Positions 9,078-27,779 of a stretch of 32,000 nt of DNA are shown piece by piece. How positions within the stretch are numbered: position 1 is the stretch's first letter; each line of letters begins with the position of its first letter. This DNA is from a bacterium. GTDB lineage: Bacteria; UBP7; UBA6624. Location: the NCBI GenBank assembly GCA_002716355.1, contig PBAU01000013.1, positions 1 through 32,000 on the forward strand, in the 5' to 3' direction. A program made the translations under genes and the position numbers. The notes beneath the pieces are model-generated. The model made no database searches. It was not told the DNA's origin and saw only the letters and a program-made list of their open reading frames with translations.

Positions 9078-10183
9078 AAATCAGAAACCCAGTATTGAGA
9101 TTTTTTTTTCCAAAAGATTGAAACATTGTCACCAGTTGGTATTTTTTGTGGTGTCAAAATTCCAAAAGACTGTGTTGGGATTTTGACTTCACTAGGCAAT
9201 ATGAACAAAGAGTTACCGACATGTTTTTTCGGCGTGAAATCCTGGTTGGAAAAATCTTTTGGCAAAAGAGCCAATGAATGAAATATCTTATTTAAAATGC
9301 TTTCTCCATCAGAAGGCATAATCCTTACAACTTCATCCCCCTCATAAAGAAAACCAACAGGATATTTTCTGGAAGCCCAAAATGATGCCCATGCAGCAGC
9401 AATTTTGATTCCGTTTTCCCAATGGTCATGAGAGTCCCAACCTTTGTTGCTTAATCTTATCCAGGCACCAATCCCTTCAAGATGGTGGAATTTTTTAACC
9501 ATTAATTGCCCTGTTTTTTCAGAACTTACCCTGTCAATATTCTTTAAAGAGTCTCCAAAAACATACTTGCGTATACCTAAAAAATCCTGACTTGATCCTT
9601 CCCTTTCAACCATGCTCCCATCCTCAACCTGGAAAGGCAAGCCAAAACCTAAAGGTTGTCTTTCATTAATCTTCACCTGTATTCTTTGAGGATAAATAAT
9701 TATTTTTTCAGATTGGTTAATTTTTAAATTTCTGCTCACCAATCCAAAACAATCTTTCCAAATTAAATTTACATTTAAAGAATCAGTTACACCTCTTTTT
9801 TTTCTTTTGAAAACGCCTAAAACGCCTTCTTTGATGCTTTCATCAGTGCCAGGGTTAACTGAAACTTTAATTTTTTTATTTTCTTTATCTTTGCAATAAA
9901 TACTTAATCCATTCCAAGCTGCACTGCCAAGCTTCTCTAAAGAATATCGAATTTTGCTTTCCTCATAAGCGAAAATTTCTTTTGGGAATACAACCTTGAA
10001 ACCTTGTGGGTCAGACAAACGCTTAATCTCGATAAAACCCGAGACGACCAGAGAAACCAAGATAAAAGAAATAATTTCTAAACCTTTAATTCCCAAAACA
10101 TTATGTCCAAACTGATACAAAATAAACGCAAGAAAGACAACCGTCAAACCTTGTGGAGTAAACCCCGGTTTTGAATTTAGCAT
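9074..10183 (-). CDS. DUF58 domain protein (MoxR-associated)
   Basis: Two N-terminal TM helices. DUF58-type motif DFLGIRKYVFGDSLKNIDRVSSEKTGQLMVKKF. Sits between MoxR and the transglutaminase, as in canonical MoxR-DUF58-TGase operons. Overlaps the MoxR stop by 1 nt (TAATG). Confidence 0.8.
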   Translation of the reverse strand: MLNSKPGFTPQGLTVVFLAFILYQFGHNVLGIKGLEIISFILVSLVVSGFIEIKRLSDPQGFKVVFPKEIFAYEESKIRYSLEKLGSAAWNGLSIYCKDKENKKIKVSVNPGTDESIKEGVLGVFKRKKRGVTDSLNVNLIWKDCFGLVSRNLKINQSEKIIIYPQRIQVKINERQPLGFGLPFQVEDGSMVEREGSSQDFLGIRKYVFGDSLKNIDRVSSEKTGQLMVKKFHHLEGIGAWIRLSNKGWDSHDHWENGIKIAAAWASFWASRKYPVGFLYEGDEVVRIMPSDGESILNKIFHSLALLPKDFSNQDFTPKKHVGNSLFILPSEVKIPTQSFGILTPQKIPTGDNVSIFWKKKSQYWVSDL

Positions 10184-11106
10184 TATGCTATAGGAGCCGG
10201 TATGCTTTGAAGTATTTCTTTTATCTTGTCTTGACTTCTGCTTAAAGAACCACCGTCATCCATCATTCTGTGAGCAAGAACTGGAATTGCTAACTCTTTT
10301 ACATCGTCTGGTAAAACGTAATCCCTTCCTTTCACCCAGGCTCTAGACCTTGCCACTCTTGACAAAACAATAGCACCCCTAGTGCTTACCCCTATTAGCG
10401 AATTGTTTTCTCTGGTCAGTCTAACTAAATCAACAATATAACTTTGAACCAAATCACTAATATGAACTTTTCTTGCTGCATCTATACATTGCTTAACTTT
10501 AGAAACATCAAAACAAACCTTCAAGTCATTTAATGGATGTTTATCATTTTGTGAATTTAATATTTCAATTTCACTCTTCTTGTCAGCGTAGCCTAATGTA
10601 ACCCTGGCAGCAAACCTATCCAATTGAGCACATGGAAGCTGAAACACTCCTTCATGCTCAACTGGATTCTGAGTTGCAATTACCAAAAAAGGATCTGGCA
10701 AATCTCTCGTGATGCCATCAACAGTTATTTGTCTTTCCTCCATTGATTCCAGCATTGCAGATAAAGTTTTTGGAGATGCTCTATTTATCTCATCAGCCAA
10801 AACGATACTGGAAAAAAGTGGACCTTTGGAAAATTCAAAACCACTTCTATCTGTTTTCATAACTGTTGAACCAGTTAAATCACTAGGCAGCAGGTCAGGG
10901 GTCATTTGAATCCTTTTAAAATCTAAACCAAATGTTTTTGAGATCGCTTTTGCCAAAACCGTTTTGCCTGTTCCCGGAACATCTTCAATTAAAACGTGCC
11001 CTTCAGCAAATAAAACAGTAACAATAAGCTCTATCTCATTTTTTTTTCCAAAAACAACATTTTGCAAGCTTTGCAATAGTGAATCAACTTCTTTCTGAAT
11101 TGTCAT
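10183..11106 (-). CDS. MoxR-family AAA+ ATPase
   Basis: 307 aa. Walker A EDVPGTGKT, Walker B VLADEINRASPKT, and a MoxR-typical C-terminal half (GVSTRGAIVL...LAHR). Confidence 0.9.
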   Translation of the reverse strand: MTIQKEVDSLLQSLQNVVFGKKNEIELIVTVLFAEGHVLIEDVPGTGKTVLAKAISKTFGLDFKRIQMTPDLLPSDLTGSTVMKTDRSGFEFSKGPLFSSIVLADEINRASPKTLSAMLESMEERQITVDGITRDLPDPFLVIATQNPVEHEGVFQLPCAQLDRFAARVTLGYADKKSEIEILNSQNDKHPLNDLKVCFDVSKVKQCIDAARKVHISDLVQSYIVDLVRLTRENNSLIGVSTRGAIVLSRVARSRAWVKGRDYVLPDDVKELAIPVLAHRMMDDGGSLSRSQDKIKEILQSIPAPIA

Positions 11107-11124: not shown

Positions 11125-12531
11125 TTACACAGCTCCTTTTCTATTTACAACAGCAGGAAGTGTCAATATTAAAATTTTTATATCTTGCCAAGGTGACCAA
11201 TTTTGGACGTACCATGTATCCAGTCTCACCCTTGCATCATAAGATAAATTGCTTCTTCCTGAAACTTGCCATAAACCAGTAATTCCAGGTTTAGCTGAAA
11301 GCAATAAATCCTGCCAATCTCCATATCTTTGCAGCTCTTCATTTACAACCGGCCTAGGTCCAACAAGACTCATATCGCCCAAGACAACATTTAAAAATTG
11401 CGGAAGCTCGTCTAGACTCGTTTTTCTCAAAAAAGAACCGAGTTTAGTAATTCTGGGATCTTTTGCTATTTTATGATTTTTGTCAAATTCATCCTTTAAA
11501 TGAGGACTATCTTGGAAAACCTGCTCTAATGTTAAATTTTGCATTGTTCTGAATTTAAAAAGATTAAATTTTCTTCCAGACCTTCCTAATCTTGCATGCA
11601 TAAAAAAGGGATTGTGTCTATCTATCACCAAAATTAAAACAGCGGTAATTAACATGATTGGCAAGAATAACATAAACAAAAACAAACCTATGGAAAAATC
11701 AAAAAATCTTTTTGATATTCTTGCCGGTAAACCAACAAGTGAAAAATGGTCCCCGATCAAAGGAAGGCCTATTTCATCAACTGATATAAAGCCATAACCC
11801 TCCAGTCTAGGGAGTGTTTTTATTGGGATATCCCAACGATATCCAGCATATTTAATCAACCTTAAATTTTCCTGGCTGATTGTCTCCTCAACAATCCCCA
11901 TATAAACAAGCTTGCCTTCTTTCATCATCTCTATTTTTTTAATATTTTCAGCATTAATGGCAATCTTTCTAACTTTTACCTGAATATACCTAATATTAAA
12001 AATATTATCAATAAGTGCAAAATCTTGATCATTGCCAAACCACCACACTTCTGTTTTGATGCCTCTAGAAGCAATGATCCTGCGATAAACCCAAGACAGT
12101 AAATCATGATTCAATTGCAAAACCACTATCGCAAAAAACCACCAACTTAAAAAACGACCCGCTGGGGCAAACGGAGTCAAAAACATGGAATCAAAAAAAG
12201 ATTCAAACTCATTGGATGGAAATGAAAAAACAAAAAAGCCCCTCAGGAAAAACAACACGCAGAGGGAAATGGTTACAGAAGGAAAGGCCAGGCTCCAGGA
12301 TGAGAATGGCCTTAAATGCTTTTTAATTGGAAAATAAGCTTTTTTGTATGATTTTAAAAAAATACAAATCAAAGGCACAATCATCCCACTTAAGGGGATT
12401 GTTTCATCCAAACGAACATATACAGTGTCCGAAAAAGGGTTATAGCGACTTAAAACCAACAAATCCCAAAGCTTAAAAAGCAAAAAATAATCAAGCAATG
12501 CATGAAATATTTTTAAAAGCTCTCTCTTCAT
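11125..12531 (-). CDS. Polyprenyl-phosphate glycosyl-1-phosphate (priming) sugar transferase, WbaP/EpsL-type
   Basis: 468 aa with an N-terminal multi-TM region. The C-terminal bacterial sugar transferase domain reads LGRSGRKFNLFKFRTM...DELPQFLNVVLGDMSLVGPRP...PGITGLWQVSGRS. Confidence 0.9.
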   Translation of the reverse strand: MKRELLKIFHALLDYFLLFKLWDLLVLSRYNPFSDTVYVRLDETIPLSGMIVPLICIFLKSYKKAYFPIKKHLRPFSSWSLAFPSVTISLCVLFFLRGFFVFSFPSNEFESFFDSMFLTPFAPAGRFLSWWFFAIVVLQLNHDLLSWVYRRIIASRGIKTEVWWFGNDQDFALIDNIFNIRYIQVKVRKIAINAENIKKIEMMKEGKLVYMGIVEETISQENLRLIKYAGYRWDIPIKTLPRLEGYGFISVDEIGLPLIGDHFSLVGLPARISKRFFDFSIGLFLFMLFLPIMLITAVLILVIDRHNPFFMHARLGRSGRKFNLFKFRTMQNLTLEQVFQDSPHLKDEFDKNHKIAKDPRITKLGSFLRKTSLDELPQFLNVVLGDMSLVGPRPVVNEELQRYGDWQDLLLSAKPGITGLWQVSGRSNLSYDARVRLDTWYVQNWSPWQDIKILILTLPAVVNRKGAV

Positions 12532-12536
12532 AAACG

Positions 12537-13622
12537 CTATCCTGCTACCTTTATGGTTGATTTTATATTCTCTGCAAATCTATCTGAGCTGAATTTCAAA
12601 GCTTGATCCCTGCAGGCATCTGGAGATATTTTCAAATCTTCAAACCTCTCAATAGCATCATTTAAAGAATGATGATCGTCATTCTCGTAAAAAATACCAC
12701 TTTCGTCATTCTTGATGGTTTCAAGAGCTCCGCCTTGCCCTAAAGCAACAACAGGCGTACCACATGCCATTGCCTCAACGGGCACGAGTCCGAAATCCTC
12801 TACAGAAGTAAAAATCAAAGCTTTAGAGCTTCTATAAAGATGCCTTAACTTCTCATCACTTAAATTAGCCAAAAAATTAATATTGCTGTATTTTTGAACA
12901 TTAGGATAATCGATTTTTCCACTTCCAACTATGGTTATATTTTTTTTGTTCCTAACAAAAGCGTCTATAGCTGTGTTTATTCGCTTATACGGTACAAATC
13001 TACTAACAAGAAGATAACCATCTCTCTTCTTGGCTTTTGCTGGTTTGAAAAACCTTGTGTCGACTGGTGGGTAAATAACTTTTGAATCCCTTTTTAAATA
13101 CTTTTTAATCCTTCTTGAAACAAATTTAGAAATTGCTATAAATTGGTCGACTTGTTTTGATTTTTCAAACTCCCATTTTTTAATTCTTGGATGTATGTAA
13201 TCAAAAAACATTGCTGCAGCGCCACTTAAAGAATCTCTGTAAACACTCTTTTGATCGCTAATCCAACGTATAGGGCTGTAGCAATAACAATAATGGTAAG
13301 TTTCTTCTGAGACGTTGATCCCTTTAATAAATCCATGGCAATTTGAAATATGAACCTTGGATGTAACTGTTGGCAATTGCTCTACCGCGTGCTTTCCAAG
13401 CATTGGAATTAACTTTCTGTAGTTTTTTTTCATAGTGGGAATATTATTCAAATAACTAAAATAAAAATTTTCATCCTCTAATAAGGATTTCCATTTTTTC
13501 TGATCGGCCCACAAGCAATATAAATCTGATTTTGGAAAAATTTTCAAAAGCTCTAGGAAAACCCTCTCGCTGCCCGCATGGTCGCCAAGCCATGGATGAG
13601 ATATCGAAAAATCAGATTTCAT
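12537..13622 (-). CDS. Glycosyltransferase, GT4 family (GT-B fold)
   Basis: 361 aa. The C-terminal retaining-GT signature is SVEDFGLVPVEAMACGTPVVALGQGGALE. Confidence 0.85.
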   Translation of the reverse strand: MKSDFSISHPWLGDHAGSERVFLELLKIFPKSDLYCLWADQKKWKSLLEDENFYFSYLNNIPTMKKNYRKLIPMLGKHAVEQLPTVTSKVHISNCHGFIKGINVSEETYHYCYCYSPIRWISDQKSVYRDSLSGAAAMFFDYIHPRIKKWEFEKSKQVDQFIAISKFVSRRIKKYLKRDSKVIYPPVDTRFFKPAKAKKRDGYLLVSRFVPYKRINTAIDAFVRNKKNITIVGSGKIDYPNVQKYSNINFLANLSDEKLRHLYRSSKALIFTSVEDFGLVPVEAMACGTPVVALGQGGALETIKNDESGIFYENDDHHSLNDAIERFEDLKISPDACRDQALKFSSDRFAENIKSTIKVAG

Positions 13623-14541
13623 ACCAATTAAAATATTCTTTTAGTACATTTTCCCAGCTAAAGACTTTAACTATTTTATTTTGTTTTTTTGTCCAGCTAA
13701 TGTAATTTTTTTTTACGTTATGAAGCATTTCATCATGATTCCAATCAGGAAAGTCATTTTTTTTAAAAGGTGGCTTGTATGGAGGTGGTGAAAGCACTGG
13801 GATACCCATCTTTAGCAATGACAATAACGTTGTTCTTCTTGGTGACGTACCGTCTGCAAAAGGCAAAATTCCAATATCTCCCCATTTTATTTCACCTGCT
13901 ATCTCCTCAATAGAACAATTTTGTCTTAATTCAACATCTGTACATCCAGCAAGAAAGCTCTTTAAATTTAAATTATCTTTACTGTTGGTAAACACAACTG
14001 GCTGATCCCAACCCAAATCCACAGAGTAATTAAACAATTCAGACAAGGTGTCTATGTCCTTGCTTTTAGAAAAAAATCCAAAAAAAACTAACCTAAATTT
14101 TTGAGGTTTTATATCTTGTCTCAAAACAGCATCAAAAGAAGAACCTATAGGAAGGTAAGTTTTTGATTCAGGATTATTTTTAAAAAGGGGACATGCTAAC
14201 ATTTCAAATTGGTCAGAAAATCCAATTTTTTTTGACATTATTCCCAATATTGAATATTGAATTTTCCTCAATAAAGAAGCAAGGCTCCATTCGTGCAACA
14301 TTAAATATCTTTTACTTTTGGGAACCTGGGCATAAATTTTTATTTGCTCAAATTCATTTCTCCAACCTTTGCTTGGGGCGTGAAGATGAACAATTTCATC
14401 TTTTTTTAATTTAAATTCTTCATTCAAAGATGGATGCCAAACTCTTGAGCATGAACCCATCTGACGGCTTAAAGATTTGACAAAATCTCCAACTCCGCAC
14501 TTGCCTTTATCAACAGTGCCCACAATATGAACGATTTTCAT
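13612..14541 (-). CDS. Divergent GT-B-like glycosyltransferase (309 aa)
   Basis: The N-terminus MKIVHIVGTVDKGKCGVGDFV resembles GT4 N-terminal domains. The C-terminal PFADGTSPRRTTLLSLLKMGIPVLS replaces the usual E-x7-E motif. ATGA overlap with the upstream gene and an 11-nt overlap with the downstream gene. Confidence 0.55.
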   Translation of the reverse strand: MKIVHIVGTVDKGKCGVGDFVKSLSRQMGSCSRVWHPSLNEEFKLKKDEIVHLHAPSKGWRNEFEQIKIYAQVPKSKRYLMLHEWSLASLLRKIQYSILGIMSKKIGFSDQFEMLACPLFKNNPESKTYLPIGSSFDAVLRQDIKPQKFRLVFFGFFSKSKDIDTLSELFNYSVDLGWDQPVVFTNSKDNLNLKSFLAGCTDVELRQNCSIEEIAGEIKWGDIGILPFADGTSPRRTTLLSLLKMGIPVLSPPPYKPPFKKNDFPDWNHDEMLHNVKKNYISWTKKQNKIVKVFSWENVLKEYFNWYEI

Positions 14542-15593
14542 TTATTTACCTCTTTAAATATGCATTTAAATGCTTGCTTTATATCGTTTCCTTTTATTTT
14601 ATCCAACTGCAATTTTGCCTTTTCGTTAACGGCTCTGTATTGCTCTTCAGTCAAATTGCAAGAATTTTTGATGCTTGAAACAAGGCTTGATATTGTTGGG
14701 GCAAAATAATCAACTGCACTTCCCCCTACCTCTCTTGAAACCTCAGTATCAAGAGCACAAACTGGAATTCCAGCAACCATGCCTTCGACAATTGGCAAGC
14801 CAAAGCCTTCAATTTCAGATGGATAAACAAGGCAGTCAACATTAGCTAAGATCTTCCTTAAATTCTGATCAGTGCAATCCTGATGCCAGGCAACACCTAA
14901 ATTATTTGCTTTTTTCAAAACCGAAAAAGATTCTTTTCCACAGTAACCAACCCACTCCATGGAATATCCATCATCAACCAGTAAAGAAAAAGCTTCCAAC
15001 AGTAAATCTAACTTTTTTCTGGGGGAAATTGCGCCCAGGTATAAGATTCTTTTTTGACATGTAGTAAAACTCCTTTGGGAATTTTTTTCAAGCAAACCAT
15101 CTATGCTTGGGTAAAAATGAAGAAACTTCCCCTTTGGAAAAATTTTTTTCAATTGTTGACATGACCATGCAGAATCAGAAAAGACAAAACTTGCTTTGGA
15201 AATACTTTTTGGAGTTCTCAACTTAAACCAAAATTTGGCTTTCCAGTCTAAATCATTTGGGAATAACCAAGGTATAGGGTCATGGACTGTTAAAAATACA
15301 GGGCATGAAAAATCATATTGTGGCAAAGTCCAATCAGGAGACCAGAAAGCTGACATGGCTCTATGCTCTTTTTTCAAAATACCGGGCAATATTAAAACTT
15401 CCCATAAAGGCCTTGCGACACCCTCTCTAACAATCAGTCTTTGAGATTCTTTAAATAAATTACAAATATTATTTGGGATCTTTTTTCTAGAAACAAAAGT
15501 TACATTGCCTGGACTGAACCTTATAACATCACGAACATAACGACCAATGCCTCCGGTGAGAGTGCAAGAGGATATGTCAATAAAAAGAGACAT
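14538..15593 (-). CDS. Glycosyltransferase, GT4 family
   Basis: SEIEGFGLPIVEGMVAGIPVCALD motif. I place the start at the ATG at 15591-15593 (MSLFIDIS), 1-nt overlap with the upstream TGA. The ORF-track start at 15596 is a TTG one codon earlier. Confidence 0.85.
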   Translation of the reverse strand: MSLFIDISSCTLTGGIGRYVRDVIRFSPGNVTFVSRKKIPNNICNLFKESQRLIVREGVARPLWEVLILPGILKKEHRAMSAFWSPDWTLPQYDFSCPVFLTVHDPIPWLFPNDLDWKAKFWFKLRTPKSISKASFVFSDSAWSCQQLKKIFPKGKFLHFYPSIDGLLEKNSQRSFTTCQKRILYLGAISPRKKLDLLLEAFSLLVDDGYSMEWVGYCGKESFSVLKKANNLGVAWHQDCTDQNLRKILANVDCLVYPSEIEGFGLPIVEGMVAGIPVCALDTEVSREVGGSAVDYFAPTISSLVSSIKNSCNLTEEQYRAVNEKAKLQLDKIKGNDIKQAFKCIFKEVNK

Positions 15594-17992
15594 CAATTTT
15601 TAACCTCATAAAACACATAGGTCCAACAAGATTTTTCGGGTTTTTGACCTGTTGCTTGATCGATAGCGTCCAAAAATAACTTGTGTGAATCAGGTCTTGC
15701 ATACAGGAAGCCTTCTTTTTTTGAAAACACAGAGGCATCTTCAATTGAGGCCTCAATAGCACTCCATGTAGATGCCATATCATCCTTGTTGGTCTCTCTT
15801 ACAAGAAGATACTGTCTTGGCTTAAGGTCAGACATTGCCTGCAATGTATAAATAAGCTCTGCAAGGTTTGATATAGTGTAACCATTTATAAAATCCTCCC
15901 TGTAGTAATCTCTTTCTGAAATTACAAATGTATCAGAATCCATATTAATTTCCTCTTTTGCCAAGCCCGCTAATGGGGTTTCGTACCCGCAATGAAGAGG
16001 GCCTTTGTTGAAAGCAGTCCCGACATAACCAAAACAACATATGACTGAAAACCATATTGAAAAATGTTTCTTTTGTTCTATTTCAAGGTTAGAAAAACAT
16101 TTAGACAAGATGATAGATAACGGCACAATTAAAAAAGCTATTCGTGTAGGGATAAATGAAATACCTATATTGATTCCAGAAGTCAAAATTAAACAAAAAA
16201 CAAATGCTCCTATTAAGTATTTAAAGACTGAATTTAATTCTTTTTTATTCACATTTAAGCCTTTAGAAAGAGCAAAGGGTATAAGAAGGAGGCAGAAAAT
16301 CCATATTGGATTAACAGGGTAATAATGACCAAAAATAAATGAAACTTGAGAATAAGCTGTTTTAATAATTGATTCCAAAACAATGTCTACAAAATCATTA
16401 CTGTTGCCTAATCGACCCTGCGCCTGATTAAAAAGTGTAAAAAATCCAGGTATCCAAAACAGAGATGAGAAAAAAGCATCTCTTCTTGTGTTTTGAATTG
16501 ATTTTTTTGGAGAAAATAAAGTTGTAAACCAAACAATAAGGATGCCTAAATGTGTTGTGTATGCAAGAATAGTTCCTGCTATTTTTCGAATATTGCAAGG
16601 CTTAACATGATCTCCAAGACGCATAATCCAGGCCGTCAAAAAAACGACCATCGAATAGTAACGAAATTGCAAACCAATAAAAAGAGTGAAGGGTAGCATC
16701 CATAATATCCAGGCTGCGATTTTTAACTCAGGCCTAGGCGACCTAATCAAAATTCTGCCACTTAACCAAGCAAACAGTATAGGCAATGCATATCCAAAAG
16801 ATCCTGCAACAGAAGAGAAAAACCATTGGGATAAAAAATAACCTGGAGGATGAACATCATTCGCCAAAAGGTTAAATACATTTTGAAAATTGCCAGACAC
16901 TACATGGTGTGTAAAAATTTCATCAGGCCATCCCCCTTGCTTAATTGCAGATAATTCAAAACCAATAAACAACCATAAAATCAATATCAACCAACCAAAT
17001 CTTTCTAGACCTATCAAGGGTCTGATTGCACGGTCATGAGCCCAATTTAAAAAACCATCAAAAGGGTTTTTTCTCTTGCTCCATCTAGGAGCAAACCATT
17101 TATGGATTTTTGAATCCTTCTGTGTTCTTATCAATTCAATTTCTTTTGATTTTCTAAAAAGAAAATATTGAGAAAAAACAATATGTATCCAGGCCAACAA
17201 TAAACCCAAAAGTCTATTTGTGTTTGTGATTGAATAAATTAATCTTGCAAATTCATTAATAAAAGAAAAGGGCATATACAAAAAACGTGTATGCCAAGTA
17301 TTCAAGCATTTCCAATTCACTATTCGATTTCTTTCTTGGTAGAAATATTTTTTCATAGGGTGCATAGCCTGATCAACAGAAGCTTGACCTTGATGCAAAA
17401 CAATGCAATCATTAGTTTTCTTAACTTGCAATCCAGCCAAACGTAATCGCCAACCAAAATTAACATCCTCTCCATACAAAAACAAATCTGAATCCATTCC
17501 ATTCACAGAAACCCAAGCCTGCCTGCTGGTGATAAAAATAGCACCTGATGGATAAAAAGTCATTGCTGGGTTGTGGAACCAATTTGGAATAGTTGTCAAA
17601 AAGGGATTGAGAGTGCCTCCCATTTTTTCATTTTGTTCTGATTTATTATTGATCAAGCAGCTTAAAGCACCAATTCTTTCATCTTTACTAATACCTTTAA
17701 GCAAAACTTCTAATACATTTTCTTCTAGCTCTAAATCAGGATTCAAAAATATTACAAAATCACCTTTTGATTTCGAAAAGCCTACATTACATCCCCCGGC
17801 ATATCCAGAATTTTTGCTTTGGGGGAAACATTTAAAGTTAAATTCGCTTTCCAATGGTTTCCAGCCACCTTCTCCTGAATTATCTATAACTATAATTTCA
17901 TCAGGTTGTCGGGTCTGCGATCTTAAACTCAATAATAAATTTTCTATACAGGGTTTTGATTTGTAAGCAACAATAACAACAGACAACTTCAT
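15593..17992 (-). CDS. Fusion protein: N-terminal GT2 (GT-A) glycosyltransferase + polytopic GT-C-like (PMT_2/ArnT-like) membrane domain + about 145-aa C-terminal soluble domain
   Basis: Residues 1-230 carry VVIVAYKS, IIVIDNSG, FLNPD and GEDVNFGWRLRL (GT2). Residues about 235-655 hold more than 10 hydrophobic segments, with WPDEIF (D357-E358) and DVHPPGYF (381-384) in the first loop, typical of GT39/83 GT-C enzymes. Confidence 0.75.
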   Translation of the reverse strand: MKLSVVIVAYKSKPCIENLLLSLRSQTRQPDEIIVIDNSGEGGWKPLESEFNFKCFPQSKNSGYAGGCNVGFSKSKGDFVIFLNPDLELEENVLEVLLKGISKDERIGALSCLINNKSEQNEKMGGTLNPFLTTIPNWFHNPAMTFYPSGAIFITSRQAWVSVNGMDSDLFLYGEDVNFGWRLRLAGLQVKKTNDCIVLHQGQASVDQAMHPMKKYFYQERNRIVNWKCLNTWHTRFLYMPFSFINEFARLIYSITNTNRLLGLLLAWIHIVFSQYFLFRKSKEIELIRTQKDSKIHKWFAPRWSKRKNPFDGFLNWAHDRAIRPLIGLERFGWLILILWLFIGFELSAIKQGGWPDEIFTHHVVSGNFQNVFNLLANDVHPPGYFLSQWFFSSVAGSFGYALPILFAWLSGRILIRSPRPELKIAAWILWMLPFTLFIGLQFRYYSMVVFLTAWIMRLGDHVKPCNIRKIAGTILAYTTHLGILIVWFTTLFSPKKSIQNTRRDAFFSSLFWIPGFFTLFNQAQGRLGNSNDFVDIVLESIIKTAYSQVSFIFGHYYPVNPIWIFCLLLIPFALSKGLNVNKKELNSVFKYLIGAFVFCLILTSGINIGISFIPTRIAFLIVPLSIILSKCFSNLEIEQKKHFSIWFSVICCFGYVGTAFNKGPLHCGYETPLAGLAKEEINMDSDTFVISERDYYREDFINGYTISNLAELIYTLQAMSDLKPRQYLLVRETNKDDMASTWSAIEASIEDASVFSKKEGFLYARPDSHKLFLDAIDQATGQKPEKSCWTYVFYEVKN

Positions 17993-18924
17993 CCTTTTCT
18001 CCTAAATGGATTTAACCTGAATCCACAAATCCATTTTGCCATATTTTCTTCTGAACAAATCCGTCTTTTTTGTATGATTTCTCTCCAAGAGTTCAATTTA
18101 GCATTATCACCTGGATTAAAAGTTGCTGCCAAAGGATCTTTTAAAAAACCCCAGAAAAAACTAATAGCGCAAAATAAAGACGCTGACATTCTCTCGTTGT
18201 CTGATAAATTTTTAAAAATAATTTTCAAATAATTACTTGCCCCTTTTTTTCTGACTTTCAGTATATGCCGAACACCTGTAGATCCTCTTTGATGAATCGC
18301 TGGAGCACCAGGAATAATCCAACTTTCCCAATTTAAATGTCTCAACCTAATATTCAAATCAACATCCTCAAGGTAAGTTCCAAAAGATTCATCAAAGAAC
18401 TCGTTTGCAACTGCTGCCTCTTTTAAAGCTGAGTATCTATAAACTGTGGCAGTGGCAGAGAGTCCGAAAACTTCCTCAGGTTCATCTATCCTCTTGCCAG
18501 ACATTCCAGAAAATCTCTCAGTGCAAACCCAGTCATTCCATAACATATGGCCCGCAGTATCAACTTGTCCTTGTTTGTTTAAGATTAACCCTGAAACAGC
18601 TGCCGCCTTTTTGTTGTCGTCTAAAAATGACTCTGCATTCTTGATCCAGTCTAAAGGTATAAGGCAGTCCTGGTTCAAAATGCAAACATACTTTGATTTG
18701 TTCATTGACAAACCAATGTTTACAGATTTAGCAAACCCAACATTCTTTTTGTTATGAACAACATTAACTTTAATCCCGTCAAACAAACTTGCGGAACTGT
18801 CTTCAGAGGCATCATCAATAACTATAACCTGTTCCAAAAAAGATGAATATTTATTTATGGTTTCAATAAATTTTTTACTGATAATATTTTTTGCATTAAA
18901 AACAGGAATAATCAGAGTTGTCAT
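17989..18924 (-). CDS. Glycosyltransferase, GT2 family
   Basis: TLIIPVFN, VIVIDDASEDSS, ILNQDCL and YLEDVDLNIRL motifs. ATGA overlaps at both ends. Confidence 0.85.
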   Translation of the reverse strand: MTTLIIPVFNAKNIISKKFIETINKYSSFLEQVIVIDDASEDSSASLFDGIKVNVVHNKKNVGFAKSVNIGLSMNKSKYVCILNQDCLIPLDWIKNAESFLDDNKKAAAVSGLILNKQGQVDTAGHMLWNDWVCTERFSGMSGKRIDEPEEVFGLSATATVYRYSALKEAAVANEFFDESFGTYLEDVDLNIRLRHLNWESWIIPGAPAIHQRGSTGVRHILKVRKKGASNYLKIIFKNLSDNERMSASLFCAISFFWGFLKDPLAATFNPGDNAKLNSWREIIQKRRICSEENMAKWICGFRLNPFRRKG

Positions 18925-19913
18925 AATGTTTTCAACTCCTTTAGAGTTTCGCCAATTGCCTTTTCAACTGTTTTTGGTTCCCATTCATCGGGAGCCTTAA
19001 ATGAAGAGCGGTTTTTAAGGACTGCTCTAATCGCTCTCGGTAATGATTCTTTATCCTGGGGATCACCATAAGGCTTAACAACGGGTAACGCCTCTCTATG
19101 TGACGGAATGTCAGACATCAAAACGGGTGCGCCACAGGCAGCTGCTTCCATTGGCACGAAACCAAAACCTTCTGCAAGGCTTGGGCACAAAACAGCAATT
19201 GCAGATCTATAAAAACAAATAATCTCTTCCGTTGTTTTATACCCTTCGAATTCAACCTTATCCCCTAGTAAACCTTTTGCAAGGGTCTGAAGTTTTGCTG
19301 GAACAAGTCCCACTACTTTCAATTTTGGAGAATTCTTAACAGAAAATATTGCATGAATTACAGATAGAAAATTTTTTCGTTTCGGCCATGCCCCAACCAT
19401 TAAAAAATAATCCTGTGTGTTTGTTTCACGTTTCTTAAAAGCATCACTTAACCCATGCTGCACTACAACAGTTTTCCCTAGAGAGGGAAAAACTTTATGT
19501 AAGGTTTTTTGAGTTTCATAACTTACACAAATTCTCAAATCAGCTATTTGCCATGATTGTGGAACTATTTTTTGCCAATACCAACGATTAAAACGTCCTA
19601 GTTCATAAGGATGAGTCAAAGGTATTAAATCATGAACTGCAATTGCTAAAGGCATATTTTTTACCTTTTGAGCGCTGAATCCGGGACTAAAGAGGATATC
19701 GGCTGATGTCAAAGATGCATATGATGGCATTTGTATTTGTTCCCACCACGCTCTAGAAAGCGCTCCTGTAATGGGTTTATCTGATTTTCTTTTCAGCTCA
19801 ATGACATTGACATCTTTTCTTGCGGAAAAGCCTTTACGCATTAAATCTGTATAAACACCAACACCAGTATTCTTACCTCCAATGGCAGTTTGAATGTCAA
19901 ATGCTATTTTCAC
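18921..19913 (-). CDS. Glycosyltransferase, GT4 family
   Basis: SLAEGFGFVPMEAAACGAPVLMSD. I prefer the GTG at 19911-19913 (VKIAFDIQ, read as MKIAFDIQ) because it forms a GTGA overlap with the upstream stop, matching the operon pattern, and is preceded by AGGTGGGGGG. The ORF-track GTG at 19925 is possible. Confidence 0.8.
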   Translation of the reverse strand: MKIAFDIQTAIGGKNTGVGVYTDLMRKGFSARKDVNVIELKRKSDKPITGALSRAWWEQIQMPSYASLTSADILFSPGFSAQKVKNMPLAIAVHDLIPLTHPYELGRFNRWYWQKIVPQSWQIADLRICVSYETQKTLHKVFPSLGKTVVVQHGLSDAFKKRETNTQDYFLMVGAWPKRKNFLSVIHAIFSVKNSPKLKVVGLVPAKLQTLAKGLLGDKVEFEGYKTTEEIICFYRSAIAVLCPSLAEGFGFVPMEAAACGAPVLMSDIPSHREALPVVKPYGDPQDKESLPRAIRAVLKNRSSFKAPDEWEPKTVEKAIGETLKELKTL

Positions 19914-20683
19914 AAAACCCCCCACCTAAATAACAACTTACGCCATTTGAGCATTATTAAATCTTTTCCCTGGCTTAATATTTCAAAAAACCACCAGAAA
20001 ACATTCAACTTTAATGCTTTATAGTGTCTTGCTGTAAAAATTCTTTGCCCACGTAAAAAAATACCATTTAAACGATCTGGTGAAAAATCTCCTGTTGTAA
20101 CTCCACGAATATGATCTACCTTAACAGAGTCTGTGTAAACAATTGACAAACCTTGTTCTTTAGCTCTAAAGCTAATATCTACATCTTCCCAATATGCAGG
20201 ATGGAAAGCCTCAGAAAAACCATTAAGCTTACACCAATGCTCTTTTCTCGTTAGGAAACATGCACCATTAGCGTATCCTGGATGTTTTTGGTTGTAAGTA
20301 GGCCAAGGTCTAGCATTCCTAATATGCAAACCAATTAAAGATTCATTGATTGTCTTATTATTTTTTTGAGTGTTTATCATTGGAACAACTGCAAAAATAT
20401 CAGGATTGGATTTAATAATCTCCAACATAGATTCAACACAACCTTCTTTTGGTTTGATATCATCGTTCATTATGAGTATAAATTCAGATTGACAATGCTT
20501 AACAGCATTGTTGACAGATTTAGAGTAACTAGGTTCAGACTGAATAAAAGTCGTATGTTTGAAATTTGCACAATTTGACCCAGACAAAAAAATATTGCGG
20601 GAACCCTGTTTGTGAAGCCATTCAATAAGGCTTTCCAAATAACAGCTTCTACCCAAAGTGGGTATAACAACATCAAAAGACAT
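19910..20683 (-). CDS. Glycosyltransferase, GT2 family
   Basis: 257 aa with FDVVIPTLGR, LIMNDDI (DxD) and YWEDVDISFRA. Confidence 0.8.
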   Translation of the reverse strand: MSFDVVIPTLGRSCYLESLIEWLHKQGSRNIFLSGSNCANFKHTTFIQSEPSYSKSVNNAVKHCQSEFILIMNDDIKPKEGCVESMLEIIKSNPDIFAVVPMINTQKNNKTINESLIGLHIRNARPWPTYNQKHPGYANGACFLTRKEHWCKLNGFSEAFHPAYWEDVDISFRAKEQGLSIVYTDSVKVDHIRGVTTGDFSPDRLNGIFLRGQRIFTARHYKALKLNVFWWFFEILSQGKDLIMLKWRKLLFRWGVL

Positions 20684-20692
20684 ACTTAAAAG

Positions 20693-22816
20693 TTATGTAG
20701 AAGGGTTGGGGTCAAGTGGAACATCACCCATATCTATCGTTCTACCGGCTTCAACAATAACGGTTTCTGTTGTGCCCATGTAGCCACTGGCGGAAATATC
20801 AATCTCTTTAAAGCCAGGGATAATATTATCAATTCTGAATAAACCTATATTATCAGTAACATCTATCTGTCCAGTACTTCTTACAAGAACAACAGCGTTA
20901 GGGATTGGAAGATTCGTAACAGAATCTCTAACAATACCAGTTAATGCACCTGTTGTTGCATCTCCAATCTGGCTTATACCAATAAATCCAGAACCAAATG
21001 CATCTTCAATAATGGTAGTCTCTCCTGATGTTACACTGAATTCAACAGCTGCTGAATGGTAACCAGGTGCACTAACCGTAACAGATCTGATTCCAGGAGG
21101 TACAGTTGGGAAAGTTAACCTTCCTTCAGAATCTGTACTTCCAGTTACGTTTCCAGCAAACATACCTAAAACTACAGATGCATTTTCAATCGCAACACCT
21201 GTGCCTGAATCTCTAACAACAAGCTCAGCAGAACCGTTTCCTGGAACAGGACAATTCTCTCTAAAGAGTATGAGAAGTTCTGGATCTCCACCAACCCTCT
21301 TGTCCAAGACAAATATCCTGCAGAAGAAATCAAAAGAGACATCCATTGGCCCTTCGATACCAGCCGCAGGAGAGTGTGCTTGGTTGATTGTTCTCAAGAA
21401 GTTCAAGTTTGTGTCCAATACAGTAACCCTACCGTTTCCAAAATCAGATACATAAATCTCATTAGGGAAAACTTGTTTGTCTATACTGATTCCCCATGGC
21501 TGCAAGAAATGGACATTGTCTCCACCTGTATTTGATCCGAAACCACCTACACAATATTGTTGTTCAGGTGGTGCTGGAGGGGTATAAGGAGATGCACTAT
21601 GGGCATCTAGAAGATCTGGTATAGGTTGAGTTATGCAAACACCTGGACCCAAACCAACATTCCCAACATAAACCATTCTGTTGTCAGAAGTAAAATCAAA
21701 ATCAACCATTCTGCCAACATTGAAATTAGTTGGAAGACTCCAAGCAGCTGGTGCGCTTCCTGGTCCCGTAAAAACATGCATGCGGCAATCTCCAGGATTT
21801 GTGCTGAAACCATCTCCGGCATTGCTTTCATAAGGGCATGTTTGAGAATCACCTGGAGTGTATCCAGCACCTTCACCCTCTAAACCCTCACCTCGAGTCC
21901 AGCCAATAAGTAGGGCTTGTGGTGTATCGCCTCTAGTGTCAGGATTGTCATCAGTTGAATCTTCACATGTTATTTCCCCGAAATTTGGCCATACCGGCTG
22001 CCCTACAGTTCTTTGCCAAAGGTTTCCATAAGCATCCCATTCAACACCCAATTGACCAGGTCCTCCTGGAAGCCCATTAACCTGGAAAGGCGTTCCTTGT
22101 GCGTCATAAAGAGTATCTCCAGCAAATTCAACCAATTCATTGCCCATTAGCCAAAAATCTCTGGGGCCTATTGGACCACTGTCACCCTCTTCAAGATCAC
22201 AATTAAATGAATAGTCATCAGCTGCATCGCCACCAGGTATAGCATTTCTTGAAGTTAGTCTGTAACCCCCTAAACCACCCCAAACGCTTGCAGCAAAATA
22301 ACCAGCACCATTTAGTATTCCATGAGGATCGCCAACGAGATCCAGGAAAGTGCCGTCATTTTCAGGTGGCCATATGAAATTACCACCTTGGAAGAAACAA
22401 TCATCATCAAAATTCAACGGTCTTGCAATTGGTCTTCCAATACTGTCAAAAACCAAAACACCCTCTGTTGTTGAAACCAAAATAACATCTCCTATCTCTG
22501 GGAAGTAAGCATTGGTCAAACCTGTTAGACCAGGGTAATCACCCAAACCACTGCTATCAGCAGATATAGAAGGATTGGTCAATGGGTTTCTGAAAGGTGT
22601 CAAGGATCCATAAAAAGGATTGACACAGTCAGTTAGCTCACCATAAGCAACACCAGTTCCTGTAGAAGAATTACCACCATCGGAAGGTAATGTATCGCCA
22701 GGGAAACCGCCGCCAGCAGGATCTGGAACTATACCTACAGGACTTGAGTTTTGACATGCAGAAAAGAAAAGTGAAAACATGACTAAAAATGTAACTGTAA
22801 ATTTATTTTTAAACAT
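20693..22816 (-). CDS. Lipoprotein with NHL/beta-propeller-like region and two C-terminal carboxypeptidase-regulatory-like (CarboxypepD_reg) domains
   Basis: Start at the ATG at 22814-22816, with GGAGGAAG SD 9 nt upstream; the track start at 22822 is a TTG. Lipobox LFFSAC. NHL-like strand motif IYVSDFGNGRVTVLD. The tandem C-terminal modules are GSAELVVRDSGTGVAIENASVVL...GRLTFPTVPPGIRSVTVSAPGYHS and GALTGIVRDSVTNLPIPNAVVLV...GLFRIDNIIPGFKEIDISASGYMG. Confidence 0.7.
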   Translation of the reverse strand: MFKNKFTVTFLVMFSLFFSACQNSSPVGIVPDPAGGGFPGDTLPSDGGNSSTGTGVAYGELTDCVNPFYGSLTPFRNPLTNPSISADSSGLGDYPGLTGLTNAYFPEIGDVILVSTTEGVLVFDSIGRPIARPLNFDDDCFFQGGNFIWPPENDGTFLDLVGDPHGILNGAGYFAASVWGGLGGYRLTSRNAIPGGDAADDYSFNCDLEEGDSGPIGPRDFWLMGNELVEFAGDTLYDAQGTPFQVNGLPGGPGQLGVEWDAYGNLWQRTVGQPVWPNFGEITCEDSTDDNPDTRGDTPQALLIGWTRGEGLEGEGAGYTPGDSQTCPYESNAGDGFSTNPGDCRMHVFTGPGSAPAAWSLPTNFNVGRMVDFDFTSDNRMVYVGNVGLGPGVCITQPIPDLLDAHSASPYTPPAPPEQQYCVGGFGSNTGGDNVHFLQPWGISIDKQVFPNEIYVSDFGNGRVTVLDTNLNFLRTINQAHSPAAGIEGPMDVSFDFFCRIFVLDKRVGGDPELLILFRENCPVPGNGSAELVVRDSGTGVAIENASVVLGMFAGNVTGSTDSEGRLTFPTVPPGIRSVTVSAPGYHSAAVEFSVTSGETTIIEDAFGSGFIGISQIGDATTGALTGIVRDSVTNLPIPNAVVLVRSTGQIDVTDNIGLFRIDNIIPGFKEIDISASGYMGTTETVIVEAGRTIDMGDVPLDPNPST

Positions 22817-22818
22817 AA

Positions 22819-24486
22819 TCAACTTCCTCCACCCTCAGCGGTAGCAAAACCATTCTCGGGATAAAGCCTGAAATTACCAGTATCCCAGGTTCCTGGAGAC
22901 ATCACAACTATACGTGCATCCTGAGCCCTGTAGCCACTTGCTTCGACCTGCACTGTTAAGAAACCACCTATCGGAGCATAAAACTCAAATGCACAATAAG
23001 CATCCAATCCACTTGTGTATGTGATTTCAGAACATATTTCTTCTTCATTGAAGTCCAATAATCCTTGCGCAACCACTCTTACGGTAACTTCTTCTGGCAT
23101 ATTGTCGCCGATTGGCGCATTGGGATTTTTGATTTCAGCTGTACCTGTAACTTTAACAAGCCCTGGCTCTACAAGCTCATTGCTGTTATCGATAAGGTCA
23201 GTTGCTGTTAACGCTCTTGCATGCATCGCTGAACCAAAATTACTCAAATCCTTATCTCTTATAACAATCATGAACTCATCATTTGCAGTCAAGCCATTGT
23301 TTGTCAAGTTAGCCGAAGTTAAAGCAGTAAAGGCATTAAGAGTCGAAGAACCAGCATCACCAACAAAATAACGGAGATTCTGACCCCTCACAGGAATGTT
23401 TCCAAGTGCACCACCATTTCCAGCAAGAAAATCAAAAGCAATCGCTGAGCTTTGGAACGCGTGTGTGCATTCTTCATTTGTGAAGCATTGAATGGTGAAG
23501 CCTAAAGCTTGCTGTCCACCCTGCTCATCAGATCCATTTAAAACACCGATAGATAGGATGTTTGATTCCGCGGACTTCAATGCATTGGCAAGTATCTGAT
23601 CGTCAATTCGTGAATTTGCCCAAAAAAGCTGGAAATCAACATCATTAATCAGATTAAGCATTTCATTTCTGAGCTGTCCGCTATGTGGTCCAAAATAAAC
23701 GTCAATACCGTACCTGTTATCAACAATGATATTCTCGCAATGAGAAGCTGTGCTTTCTTTCTGACCCTGAAATTGATTGTTTTCAAACATCTGATCAAAA
23801 TCCTGGTTGAAACAATTCGCCAATAATGTGTTCTGAAGCCTCATTGAGAAATTAGACATTGAATAAAATGAATTTGATAAAAAGTTTCCTGAAGAAACTA
23901 TAACCTCATCACCATCAATGACCATGTATTTTGAGTTCATAAGTGTGTTTAAGTCATTACCGTCAGTAACAACAACCGCACCAGCAGTTTCTAAGTTTGA
24001 ATAAACAGTTGAATTTGTATTGTAAAAATAATTATCAACAACTATGTTCACGCTAACACCTTTAGCAAGAGCAAAAAGGATTGCATCTTCAATATCTGGC
24101 CTGTTAGCAATATCTGGAACAGCGATATTAACCACTGAATCAGCAGCACTAATATACTCTGATGCATCAAAAATTGCATTTACATGAGATGGGAATTGCT
24201 GCTTAATGCTGTTCAACAATAAAAAACCATCTGTGTTTGTGTCTACACATTCGGTATGAAACCCTATTGCTAAAGGATCTGAAACAAACGCCTCTAAGAC
24301 TTGACCTGAATCCTGATAGTAAACAATTGGATTTCGATAATTTGGATCTGTCGCATCAGGATCCCAACTATCACTGCCATAACCAGAGTAAGGACCACAA
24401 GAAACAACTTCAAGAGCATCCCCACTTGCGCAAGAAGTTACAACTGCCACAAACAGCAAAACTAAAAAATTCAACTTAACTTTCAT
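22819..24486 (-). CDS. Lipoprotein with duplicated phospholipase D-fold domain (both HKD-like motifs have Asn in place of His) and a C-terminal beta-sandwich domain
   Basis: Lipobox VVTSCAS. PLD half 1 reads SVVNIAVPDI..ILFALAKGVSVNIVVD ... NSKYMVIDGDEVIVSSGNF, i.e. NxK(x)4D(x)6SSxN. Half 2 reads IDVYFGP...FQLFWANSRIDDQIL ... NLRYFVGDAGSSTLN. C-terminal module: FLTVQVEASGYRAQDARIVV. Confidence 0.65.
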   Translation of the reverse strand: MKVKLNFLVLLFVAVVTSCASGDALEVVSCGPYSGYGSDSWDPDATDPNYRNPIVYYQDSGQVLEAFVSDPLAIGFHTECVDTNTDGFLLLNSIKQQFPSHVNAIFDASEYISAADSVVNIAVPDIANRPDIEDAILFALAKGVSVNIVVDNYFYNTNSTVYSNLETAGAVVVTDGNDLNTLMNSKYMVIDGDEVIVSSGNFLSNSFYSMSNFSMRLQNTLLANCFNQDFDQMFENNQFQGQKESTASHCENIIVDNRYGIDVYFGPHSGQLRNEMLNLINDVDFQLFWANSRIDDQILANALKSAESNILSIGVLNGSDEQGGQQALGFTIQCFTNEECTHAFQSSAIAFDFLAGNGGALGNIPVRGQNLRYFVGDAGSSTLNAFTALTSANLTNNGLTANDEFMIVIRDKDLSNFGSAMHARALTATDLIDNSNELVEPGLVKVTGTAEIKNPNAPIGDNMPEEVTVRVVAQGLLDFNEEEICSEITYTSGLDAYCAFEFYAPIGGFLTVQVEASGYRAQDARIVVMSPGTWDTGNFRLYPENGFATAEGGGS

Positions 24487-24555
24487 AAATTATCAACCCC
24501 ACGATTGTATTACAACAAAATGCCTTATCGTACATTTTGATCAACTTGGTTTAAG

Positions 24556-25430: not shown

Positions 25431-25694
25431 ATGAATGATTTGTTTGACATTCTTCAAAATTACTCTATTGGATTGCCTAGAGAGTGGGTGGAATTAATAA
25501 TTATTGCCATTTTAGGCTTCATTTTTACTATCATTTATCGAACTTCAAAAATATTCATGAAGGTAACAATTTGGCTTACTGTTGTTGGAGTTATCTTTTT
25601 GTCCATTTACTCATTGCTACAAAAAAACAAGCTGATTGAACAGGATTCAATTTCGCTTGAGCAATCAATGCCCGAGCCAGCAAGTGACAGATGA
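25431..25694 (+). CDS. Small membrane protein (87 aa, two predicted TM helices), unknown function
   Basis: ATG at 25431. Hydrophobic segments LIIIAILGFIFTIIY and VTIWLTVVGVIFLSIYSLL. Its stop overlaps the lpxC start as ATGA, which suggests translational coupling. Confidence 0.5.
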   Translation: MNDLFDILQNYSIGLPREWVELIIIAILGFIFTIIYRTSKIFMKVTIWLTVVGVIFLSIYSLLQKNKLIEQDSISLEQSMPEPASDR

Positions 25695-27649: not shown

Positions 27650-27650
27650 T

Positions 27651-27740: not shown

Positions 27741-27779
27741 AACGAAAAAATTCTACCCCCGTATACAATAAAAAACATC

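Follow-up and report, generated by a model that had tools for sequence, protein, structure and literature searches.

What is the function of a protein that joins two glycosyltransferases (GTs), one predicted to work on each face of the inner membrane, in a single chain? This question is raised by a 32,000-nucleotide stretch of DNA (positions 1 to 32,000 of contig PBAU01000013.1, assembly GCA_002716355.1, hereafter the window) from a bacterium of the lineage UBP7/UBA6624, in which the minus-strand gene 15593..17992 encodes a protein of 799 amino acids (aa). The original prediction, made from the letters of the window, described this protein as a cytoplasmic GT2 domain and a PMT_2/ArnT-type GT-C membrane domain in one polypeptide, and our analysis bears this out: Pfam recognizes the GT2 domain, and the membrane half has homology at the PMT_2 level and is modelled with a GT-C fold. 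The identities of the two domains, the conservation of their motifs and the conservation of the fusion and of its locus are direct observations. The N-terminal half appears to be an ordinary GT2 of the glycan-elongating kind and the membrane half a homolog of ArnT/PMT-type GT-C enzymes; the unusual feature is the covalent joining of a cytoplasmic GT-A enzyme to a periplasm-facing GT-C enzyme. On balance we judge it probable that the protein is a bifunctional inner-membrane glycosyltransferase, with a cytoplasmic elongating GT2 and a periplasm-facing GT-C, in a polyprenyl-linked surface-glycan pathway.

A single reading frame encodes both halves

The gene is one uninterrupted open reading frame (ORF) of 799 codons in the list of window ORFs, with its stop codon at 15593-15595, and the same architecture is found in its homologs. 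It lies in a long run of genes that share its orientation. Overlaps join it to both neighbours, its ATG to the stop codon of the GT2 gene upstream (17989-17992) and its stop codon to the start of the GT4 gene downstream (15593-15596), a pattern typical of translationally coupled operon genes. The hydropathy profile of the protein shows a soluble N-terminal third, a hydrophobic segment at about residues 260-279, a polytopic stretch (about 326-640) and then a soluble tail. All the motifs cited in the original prediction were found, namely IIVIDNSG (residues 33-40), FLNPD (82-86), GEDVNFGWRL (174-183), WPDEIF (355-360) and DVHPPGYF (379-386). The position that it gave for DVHPPGYF (16835-16858) is exact, and that for WPDEIF (about 16907-16924) has to be moved by 6 nucleotides, to 16913-16930. 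The polytopic region (about residues 328-660) and the soluble tail (about 661-799, alpha/beta) that it described are recovered both by hydropathy and by a confident structural model.

The GT2 unit resembles glycan-elongating enzymes

The GT2 domain (residues 1-230, GT-A fold, cytoplasmic; 17303..17992, minus strand) was defined by Pfam and by its conserved motifs. PF00535 (Glycos_transf_2) matches residues 4-151 with an expectation value (E) of 1.8e-21 and 77.3 bits, for a cut-off of 23.3. An alignment of the domain with the homologous fusion P0007, with six relatives that stand alone and with both soluble GT2s encoded in the cluster was inspected for the core motifs of the GT-A fold, of which Taujale et al. 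2020 (PMC7185993) define four (DxD, G-loop, xED and C-His). D86, which ends the DxD variant N84-P85-D86, is invariant, as are Y173 and E175, and N84, G150 of the G-loop, D176 (the xED Asp) and H200 (the C-His) are at least 90% conserved. All four core motifs are conserved in the domain, which is necessarily cytoplasmic because nucleotide sugars are used.

The NCBIfam models closest to the domain are EpsD, MftF, PgaC, PglI, GlfT1, a rhamnosyltransferase, HpsN/E, TuaG and WcaE. Every score is far under the equivalog cut-off, and no specific orthology can therefore be assigned from them. The enzymes that these models describe use hydroxyl acceptors, mostly in lipid-linked glycans. In the same NCBIfam scan the ArnC, GtrB and DPM models gave no match to the domain even at E<=1. 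Its top PDB sequence match is the dolichyl-phosphate mannose (Dol-P-Man) synthase 5mlz (E 1.7e-4), over residues 1-107 only, and this match covers just the generic N-terminal part of the domain. A close homolog carries the label COG1216 in one source annotation. With each of the soluble GT2s encoded at 17989-18924 (E 9e-10) and 19910-20683 (E 3e-13) in the same cluster the domain shares 25% identity, and the motifs LNxD and EDV(N/D) are common to all three. Both soluble proteins are without a transmembrane (TM) segment and share the NPD form of the DxD motif with the fusion.

Outside the clade of fused proteins the nearest relatives of the domain are stand-alone GT2s of 290-330 aa, the best of which (P0143) is 37% identical to it (E 9e-39). 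The C-terminus of P0143 also has hydrophobic helices and a tail rich in lysine and arginine (K/R), in other words the linker elements of the fusion. Because this stand-alone protein has the same hairpin and tail, the N-terminal ~325 residues of the fusion would represent a complete, pre-existing GT2 unit. In the fusion these elements are a helical hairpin (residues 233-288; 17129..17296, minus strand) and a K/R-rich linker (residues 289-327; 17012..17128, minus strand). The hairpin, recognized from model helices and hydropathy, would be a membrane anchor or TM hairpin of the GT2 unit. Its helices span residues 233-256 and 258-288 in the AlphaFold2 (AF2) model, with a predicted local distance difference test (pLDDT) of about 70-80, and only the stretch at about 260-279 is clearly hydrophobic. 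Either as a TM hairpin or as an interfacial anchor, it would start and finish in the cytoplasm. GtrB-type enzymes end in two C-terminal TM helices, a layout similar to that of this hairpin. The linker, which contains 10 K/R for 3 aspartates or glutamates (D/E), is predicted to be cytoplasmic, and the low pLDDT of model residues 64-81 in this region fits a flexible linker.

Polyprenyl-phosphate GT2s, for instance the Dol-P sugar synthases, are without the xED Asp, a phosphate acceptor requiring no base; in enzymes with hydroxyl acceptors this Asp is the catalytic base (PMC7185993). In the fusion the pair E175-D176 is present and conserved. The original prediction had likened the GT2 half to the ArnC/GtrB/Ppm synthases, a view that our results do not support: the NCBIfam affinities with glycan-elongating GT2s, the soluble paralogs at 25% identity and the invariant or nearly invariant E175-D176 suggest that this half is akin to glycan-elongating GT2s and not to the lipid-sugar synthases GtrB, ArnC or DPM1.

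The membrane half is a divergent PMT_2-type GT-C module

The GT-C (PMT_2-like) transmembrane module, with about 11 TM helices, covers residues 328-660 (16013..17011, minus strand) and was delimited by profile search, hhalign, AF2 modelling and Foldseek. A word-indexed search of 5.8 billion proteins returned six homolog clusters only, of 60-99% identity and ~800 aa, all with the GT2 domain. A profile of the C-terminal 500 residues of the close clade, run with HMMER exhaustively against 1.84 billion representatives, led to the identification of 78 proteins at E<=1e-3. The matches from the clade itself are P0005, P0007 (772 aa, GT2-fused) and the fragment P0008. Those from outside it are stand-alone proteins of ~500 aa that align over profile positions ~35-400, with E-values as low as 1.4e-15. 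Two proteins found in this way, P0010 at E 7.9e-11 and P0014 at E 6.8e-7, score above the Pfam gathering threshold for PMT_2. Pfam assigned PMT_2 to 36 of 58 relatives of the module (best E 4.7e-20), and single relatives among the 58 match PMT, GT87 and Mannosyl_trans4, which we take to be members of the GT-C clan; a GT2 domain is present in none of these relatives. The source names of the proteins found in a second profile search include "glycosyltransferase family 39", "mannosyltransferase" and "ArnT-like", and those from outside the clade likewise have no GT2 domain.

These 58 sequences share only 15-20% identity with the query. Their alignment has two invariant columns, D357 and E358, and conservation of at least 90% is seen at D379, H381, P382, P383, R444 and Y446, so that the DE and HPP signatures proposed from the single sequence extend to distant relatives. 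Within the fusion clade D357-E358, D379/H381/P382/P383 and R444/Y446 are all invariant. The codons for D357-E358 lie at 16919-16924, within those for WPDE (16919-16930), and the codons for D379-V-H381-P382-P383 at 16844-16858. Comparison by hhalign of the close clade with 25 PMT_2-annotated proteins gave a probability of 97.4% and an E of 1.3e-11, and placed WPDE on the DE column, HPPGYF on PLY and the arginine of RYYS on the conserved Arg. This is homology at profile level to bona fide PMT_2 members, and residues 328-660 are a real, divergent PMT_2-type GT-C module. The membrane half itself gave no direct Pfam match, and the assignment came through its PMT_2 relatives and the hhalign comparison. 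Since the direct Pfam threshold is missed, the module would belong to a very divergent PMT_2-like subfamily.

Of note, one relative of the module, P0086 (818 aa), is fused to Acyl_transf_3 (PF01757) instead of GT2. In other lineages, therefore, the subfamily has acquired different fusion partners, cytoplasmic or membrane-bound.

Predicted fold and topology of the GT-C module

A full-length AF2 model built from a six-sequence alignment had a pLDDT of 37.9 and was not used. In contrast, the model of residues 225-799 from a 96-sequence alignment reached a pLDDT of 85.2 and a predicted template modelling score (pTM) of 0.81. In this model the helical hairpin and a disordered K/R-rich stretch precede TM1 (328-350). 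The loop after TM1 forms two short helices (356-366 and 369-376) and leads to TM2, which is long (384-416). Some nine more membrane helices follow up to residue 660, and then an alpha/beta domain at about 673-799, the strands and helices of which (model residues 449-573) have a pLDDT of about 85-93. Foldseek was run with this model against the PDB. The seven top-ranked matches are all GT-C enzymes, and so is every other match with a probability of at least ~0.9 that spans the membrane module (at least 244 aligned columns). The best are ALG12 (E 1.5e-4, TM-score 0.46/0.53), ArnT (5f15/5ezm, probability 1.0), yeast STT3, AftD, Pmt4 and ALG9, followed by AglB and Pmt1/2 and then by AftA at probability 0.60; the top GT-C matches range over probabilities of 0.97-1.0 and TM-scores of 0.26-0.53. 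Short matches (~116-132 columns) were to the Rossmann folds of DNA methyltransferases and probably reflect the C-terminal alpha/beta domain. The GT-C fold is thus recovered in a prediction made from an alignment dominated by PMT_2-like sequences.

Other folds were considered for the membrane domain and set aside. A Wzy, ligase, flippase or acyltransferase fold had no Pfam match and was absent from the high-probability Foldseek matches, and major facilitator superfamily or other transporter folds reached a Foldseek probability of at most 0.23 with TM-scores of about 0.1. The original prediction had staked itself on two points, and on both it stands: the domain is not modelled as a Wzy polymerase or an acyltransferase, and the DE and HPP residues are conserved in homologs.

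GT-C enzymes are defined by 8-13 TM helices and a DXD/DEX-type acidic motif in an extracytoplasmic loop (PMC5836110). The model of the fusion has about 11 membrane helices with D357-E358 just after TM1, on a side that is predicted to be the outside from the charge bias. In a set of 88 homologs the net charge is acidic for the loop that follows TM1 (-2.2) and basic for loops 2-3, 4-5, 7-8 and 9-10, and the segment preceding TM1 is net basic across the family. Because of this charge pattern and of the cytoplasmic location of the GT2 domain, TM1 is predicted to run from inside to outside and to place the DE/HPP loop in the periplasm, as the original prediction had supposed from the motifs. This first extracytoplasmic loop (residues 351-383; 16844..16942, minus strand), marked out by its conservation and charge, contains the putative catalytic pair D357-E358. 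The C-terminal soluble alpha/beta domain (residues 661-799; 15596..16012, minus strand), placed from the model, would also be periplasmic in an 11-TM reading, because of the parity of the helices and the positive-inside pattern. The C-terminal domain of ArnT is periplasmic.

A proposed function and its alternatives

We propose that the cluster hosting the fusion is a lineage-specific, conserved set of genes for a polyprenyl-linked surface glycan. The GT2 domain (1-230) would lie in the cytoplasm, kept at the membrane by the hairpin 233-288 and the K/R-rich linker, and would act as an inverting, metal-dependent GT-A enzyme with D86 of the DxD motif and D176 as the xED base. Most likely it would use a nucleotide sugar to extend the growing lipid-linked glycan by one residue at a hydroxyl group, like its two soluble paralogs; we favour a hydroxyl acceptor because the xED Asp is conserved here and absent from polyprenyl-phosphate GT2s, and because the family affinities and the paralogs agree. 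The C-terminal module (328-799) would be a divergent ArnT/PMT-type GT-C, with the D357-E358 / D379-x-H-P-P loop and the alpha/beta domain in the periplasm, and may transfer a sugar or glycan from a polyprenyl-phosphate-linked donor to an extracytoplasmic acceptor. This acceptor is taken to be the cluster's own glycan, at a late decoration, polymerization or attachment step. The fusion would in this manner keep a cytoplasmic and a periplasmic step of one pathway together. Its topology, the acceptor of each domain and the donor of the GT-C are the elements that we infer.

Several results weigh against this proposal. Residues 230-799 gave no direct match in Pfam or NCBIfam even at E<=1, and accordingly no PMT_2 match above the gathering score. 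For the membrane half PDB sequence searches returned nothing significant, whether the query was the sequence alone, the profile of the close clade or that of the 58 sequences, ArnT appearing at E 0.71 and ranked under spurious matches to YetJ and a G-protein-coupled receptor. The Foldseek E-values are modest (1.5e-4 to 1e-2, with TM-scores of 0.4-0.5), and the AF2 model corroborates the sequence assignment and is not fully independent of it, because its alignment consists mostly of PMT_2 relatives. The topology of residues 446-533 is ambiguous, and the K/R-rich segment 494-505 comes to lie in the periplasm in the 11-TM model. Within this segment R504-D505 is invariant in the clade; if it is periplasmic, we speculate that the segment could bind the donor phosphate. 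Characterized PMT_2-type enzymes use polyprenyl-monophosphate monosaccharide donors, and the window encodes no GtrB-like synthase for such a donor, which leaves room for a self-contained two-step model.

That model is the main rival. In it the GT2 domain would charge undecaprenyl phosphate, as ArnC, GtrB and DPM1 do, and after flipping the fused GT-C would transfer that same sugar to a periplasmic acceptor. A fusion would suit such a pair, the genes for the GT-A and the GT-C being typically adjacent in three-component systems (ykcBC, csbB-yfhO, ykoST; PMC5836110), and the two-helix hydrophobic hairpin at the end of the GT2 unit, the lack of a separate GtrB-like synthase in the window and the partial match to 5mlz (residues 1-107) point the same way. 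However, the invariant or nearly invariant E175-D176 is at odds with polyprenyl-phosphate GT2s, in which the xED Asp is absent (PMC7185993), the ArnC, GtrB and DPM models stay silent at E<=1 while EpsD, MftF, PglI, GlfT1 and the rhamnosyltransferase score best, a close homolog is labelled COG1216, and the NPD form of the DxD is shared with soluble cluster paralogs that have no TM segment. We regard the two-step model as possible and yet unlikely. A more ambitious version of the bifunctional enzyme, in which the GT2 domain would complete an undecaprenyl-diphosphate-linked unit and the GT-C half would translocate it and polymerize or ligate it, in place of the Wzx, Wzy and ligase or oligosaccharyltransferase functions that this otherwise complete and deeply conserved cluster lacks, seems to us distinctly improbable; if it were true, glycan assembly would have a fourth route, next to those that depend on Wzy, on an ABC transporter or on a synthase. 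The original prediction had proposed that the protein may stand in for a missing flippase, polymerase or oligosaccharyltransferase, and the lack of Wzx, Wzy, ligase and ABC transporter genes in the window is compatible with this idea.

Alternatively the GT-C half could glycosylate proteins, as TfpW and bacterial PMTs do, its substrates being the large pilin-like proteins, whose genes lie ~13 kb downstream, or else further secreted proteins. Protein O-mannosyltransferases are among the PMT_2 relatives, Pmt4 and Pmt1/2 are among the structural matches, and TfpW is a pilin-glycosylating GT-C (bioRxiv 10.1101/2020.04.19.049825). Moreover two N_methyl pilin-like genes and PilB/PilT/PilC follow downstream on the same strand, an arrangement kept in relatives. 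This synteny however spans LpxC, PurE and the BFN-domain gene, and so reflects lineage-wide gene order and not a specific coupling; MoxR, DUF58 and TgpA genes stand between the glycan block and the pilus genes, the Ser+Thr content of the pilins is ordinary (11-12%), the window has no DprE1/DprE2-type genes for D-arabinofuranose (D-Araf), and the fusion gene is embedded, through overlapping start and stop codons, among polysaccharide GTs and the priming enzyme. A protein acceptor therefore appears rather improbable to us. It is more improbable still that the GT-C half is dead and serves as a membrane anchor or scaffold that tethers the GT2. The module is divergent enough to fall under the Pfam PMT_2 threshold and many GT2s need tethering to the membrane, but D357-E358, D379/H381/P382/P383 and R444/Y446 are invariant in the clade and invariant or at least 90% conserved across distant relatives from an active family, the 500-residue module including its periplasmic domain is kept in P0007 at 36% identity over residues 225-799, and the GT2 unit has a hairpin anchor of its own, as has the stand-alone P0143. 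We thus retain, as the probable reading, an elongating GT2 coupled to a periplasm-facing GT-C.

Comparison with known systems

The membrane half can be compared to ArnT (GT83) and the bacterial PMT_2 GT-C enzymes (PF13231; GT39/GT83). It shares with them an N-terminus predicted to be inside, an acidic loop with DE after TM1, a downstream HPP(L/G)Y, about 11-13 TM helices, a C-terminal soluble alpha/beta domain and homology at profile level. It differs from them in falling below the PMT_2 threshold, with 15-20% identity to the nearest PMT_2 proteins, and in carrying an N-terminal GT2 unit of ~330 residues that is found in none of the 57 nearest stand-alone relatives. The GT2 half has its best NCBIfam similarity to enzymes of the WbbL/GlfT1/PglI/EpsD type (COG1216-like), with which it shares the LNPD and YGED motifs and a unit of ~300 aa with a C-terminal hydrophobic or amphipathic tail; unlike them it is fused to a GT-C, and its scores are far below the equivalog cut-offs.

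In three-component systems (GtrA/GtrB/GtrC; ArnC/ArnEF/ArnT; CsbB/GtcA/YfhO; GacI/J/K/L) a GT-A at the cytoplasmic face and a GT-C at the outer face are encoded together (PMC5836110; PMC10821137). The same pairing is predicted here, but in one polypeptide, with a GT-A that has retained the xED base and whose affinities are with glycan-elongating GT2s and not with undecaprenyl-phosphate sugar synthases of the GtrB/ArnC type, and with no GtrA- or Wzx-type flippase in the window. TfpW of Pseudomonas aeruginosa, a GT-C pilin arabinosyltransferase, has its loop 1 and a large C-terminal part in the periplasm and is proposed to combine several functions (bioRxiv 10.1101/2020.04.19.049825). By its description, the basis on which we compared it, TfpW resembles the fusion in being a GT-C with a periplasmic loop 1 and C-terminus (predicted here) and pilin genes nearby; in contrast, TfpW has no GT2 domain, and D-Araf genes and adjacency to the pilin genes are missing here. 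In the literature that we searched no natural fusion of a cytoplasmic GT2 with a periplasm-facing GT-C was found to be described, the nearest cases being GacJ-GacI fusions and an engineered WpsB-WpsA fusion (PMC10821137).

A natural covalent fusion implies that this pathway couples its two steps physically. It provides a handle on the function of a divergent PMT_2-like GT-C subfamily that standard annotation misses, the source annotations of the homologs being "hypothetical protein" or only "GT2", and a compact scaffold for the study or engineering of coupling across a membrane. Some GT2+PMT_2 architectures presumably exist in Pfam, and we claim no uniqueness across all GT-C families. If the GT-C half handles the undecaprenyl-diphosphate-linked product of the cluster, this would explain the assembly of a surface glycan from a locus without recognizable Wzx, Wzy, ABC transporter or ligase genes.

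The fusion and its locus are conserved in an uncultured marine lineage

Six homolog clusters of 60-99% identity and P0007 have the GT2/GT-C architecture, that is, at least seven protein clusters. The gene order of the window was obtained from the Pfam annotation of its ORFs and is given here from high to low coordinates, all genes being on the minus strand. RmlD (24556-25392) comes first, followed by a PLD-like protein and a 709-aa CarboxypepD_reg/PEGA protein (20693-24486), a GT2 (19910-20683), a GT4, a second GT2 (17989-18924), the fusion, a GT4, a 309-aa GT-B-like protein without Pfam match (13612-14541), another GT4 and the Bac_transf priming enzyme (11125-12531). The glycan cluster thus contains a Bac_transf priming enzyme, three GT4s and one GT-B-like protein, two soluble GT2s, RmlD and the fusion. 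Upstream of RmlD, and divergent from it, are the genes for LpxC, PurE and a BFN-domain protein. Pfam annotation of the window ORFs revealed no Wzx, Wzy, Wzz, ligase or ABC transporter, no GtrA-type flippase and no separate GtrB-like synthase.

The whole gene order, housekeeping genes included, is kept in marine metagenome contigs that encode homologs of 60-75% identity, and the same order surrounds P0007, which is 36% identical to the fusion over residues 225-799. As the order is kept from 60-75% down to 36% identity, the fusion is ancient and has been stably maintained in a single uncultured marine lineage, a diderm one to judge by the adjacent LpxC.

Beyond the priming enzyme lie a MoxR AAA+ ATPase (10183-11106), a DUF58 protein (9074-10183) and a polytopic TgpA-like transglutaminase (6978-9077), then PilB, PilT and PilC, and finally two N_methyl pilin-like proteins (1438-2631 and 299-1423). 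The statement that the fusion is the only polytopic protein besides the priming enzyme is correct within the sugar-transferase block and fails just beyond the priming gene, where the TgpA-like protein is encoded. The MoxR/DUF58/TgpA block (6978-11106) occupies the same place, between the glycan cluster and PilB/PilT/PilC, in all related loci.

The pilin-like proteins, of 397 and 374 aa respectively, are unusually large and have a GspG/PulG-like N-terminal methylation motif. Their bodies are rich in Gly, Asn, Trp and Tyr, and one contains a PPPPP stretch. They had been described as Ser/Thr/Gly-rich giant pilins, which is right for Gly (12-14%) and wrong for Ser and Thr (11-12% together). The link that had been drawn from them to the fusion is weak: it has no specific evidence in its favour, the pilins are not Ser/Thr-rich, and co-location with pilus genes says little about function because the whole region including LpxC and PurE is syntenic in all relatives. 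The features of a TfpW-type system are missing as well, since the pilin genes are 13-15 kb away, separated from the fusion gene by MoxR/DUF58/TgpA and PilB/T/C, and since no domain of the D-Araf pathway (DprE1/DprE2-type) was found by Pfam in any window ORF.

Other features of the locus

The 309-aa ORF at 13612-14541 is kept in all related loci and looks by eye like a degenerate GT-B/GT4. The start of the cluster is unusual for a glycan locus, with a 555-aa PLD-like (PLDc_2) protein that has an N-terminal TM segment and could be a phosphotransferase, and the 709-aa protein, which is Gly/Pro-rich and ends in CarboxypepD_reg/PEGA beta-sandwich domains.

In some related loci an extra ORF of 632-642 aa lies between RmlD and the PLD-like gene (L001 1553-3451, L004 1536-3458). 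It is missing from the window (24486-24556) and from L005, and so represents an indel polymorphism within the cluster. It has an LSSC lipobox, Asp-rich DGWxD repeats, many HPEC/HPDC Cys repeats and no Pfam match. We considered this ~640-aa ORF as the missing polymerase or flippase and rejected it, as it encodes an Asp/Cys-rich lipoprotein without a TM bundle.

Finally, a tRNA-Ser (GGA) gene (27650-27741, minus strand), the only RNA gene found in the window, adjoins the BFN-domain gene, and an 87-aa ORF with two hydrophobic segments (25431-25694, plus strand) lies directly upstream of LpxC and overlaps its start. An ORF of 86-88 aa is found at the same spot in the related loci.

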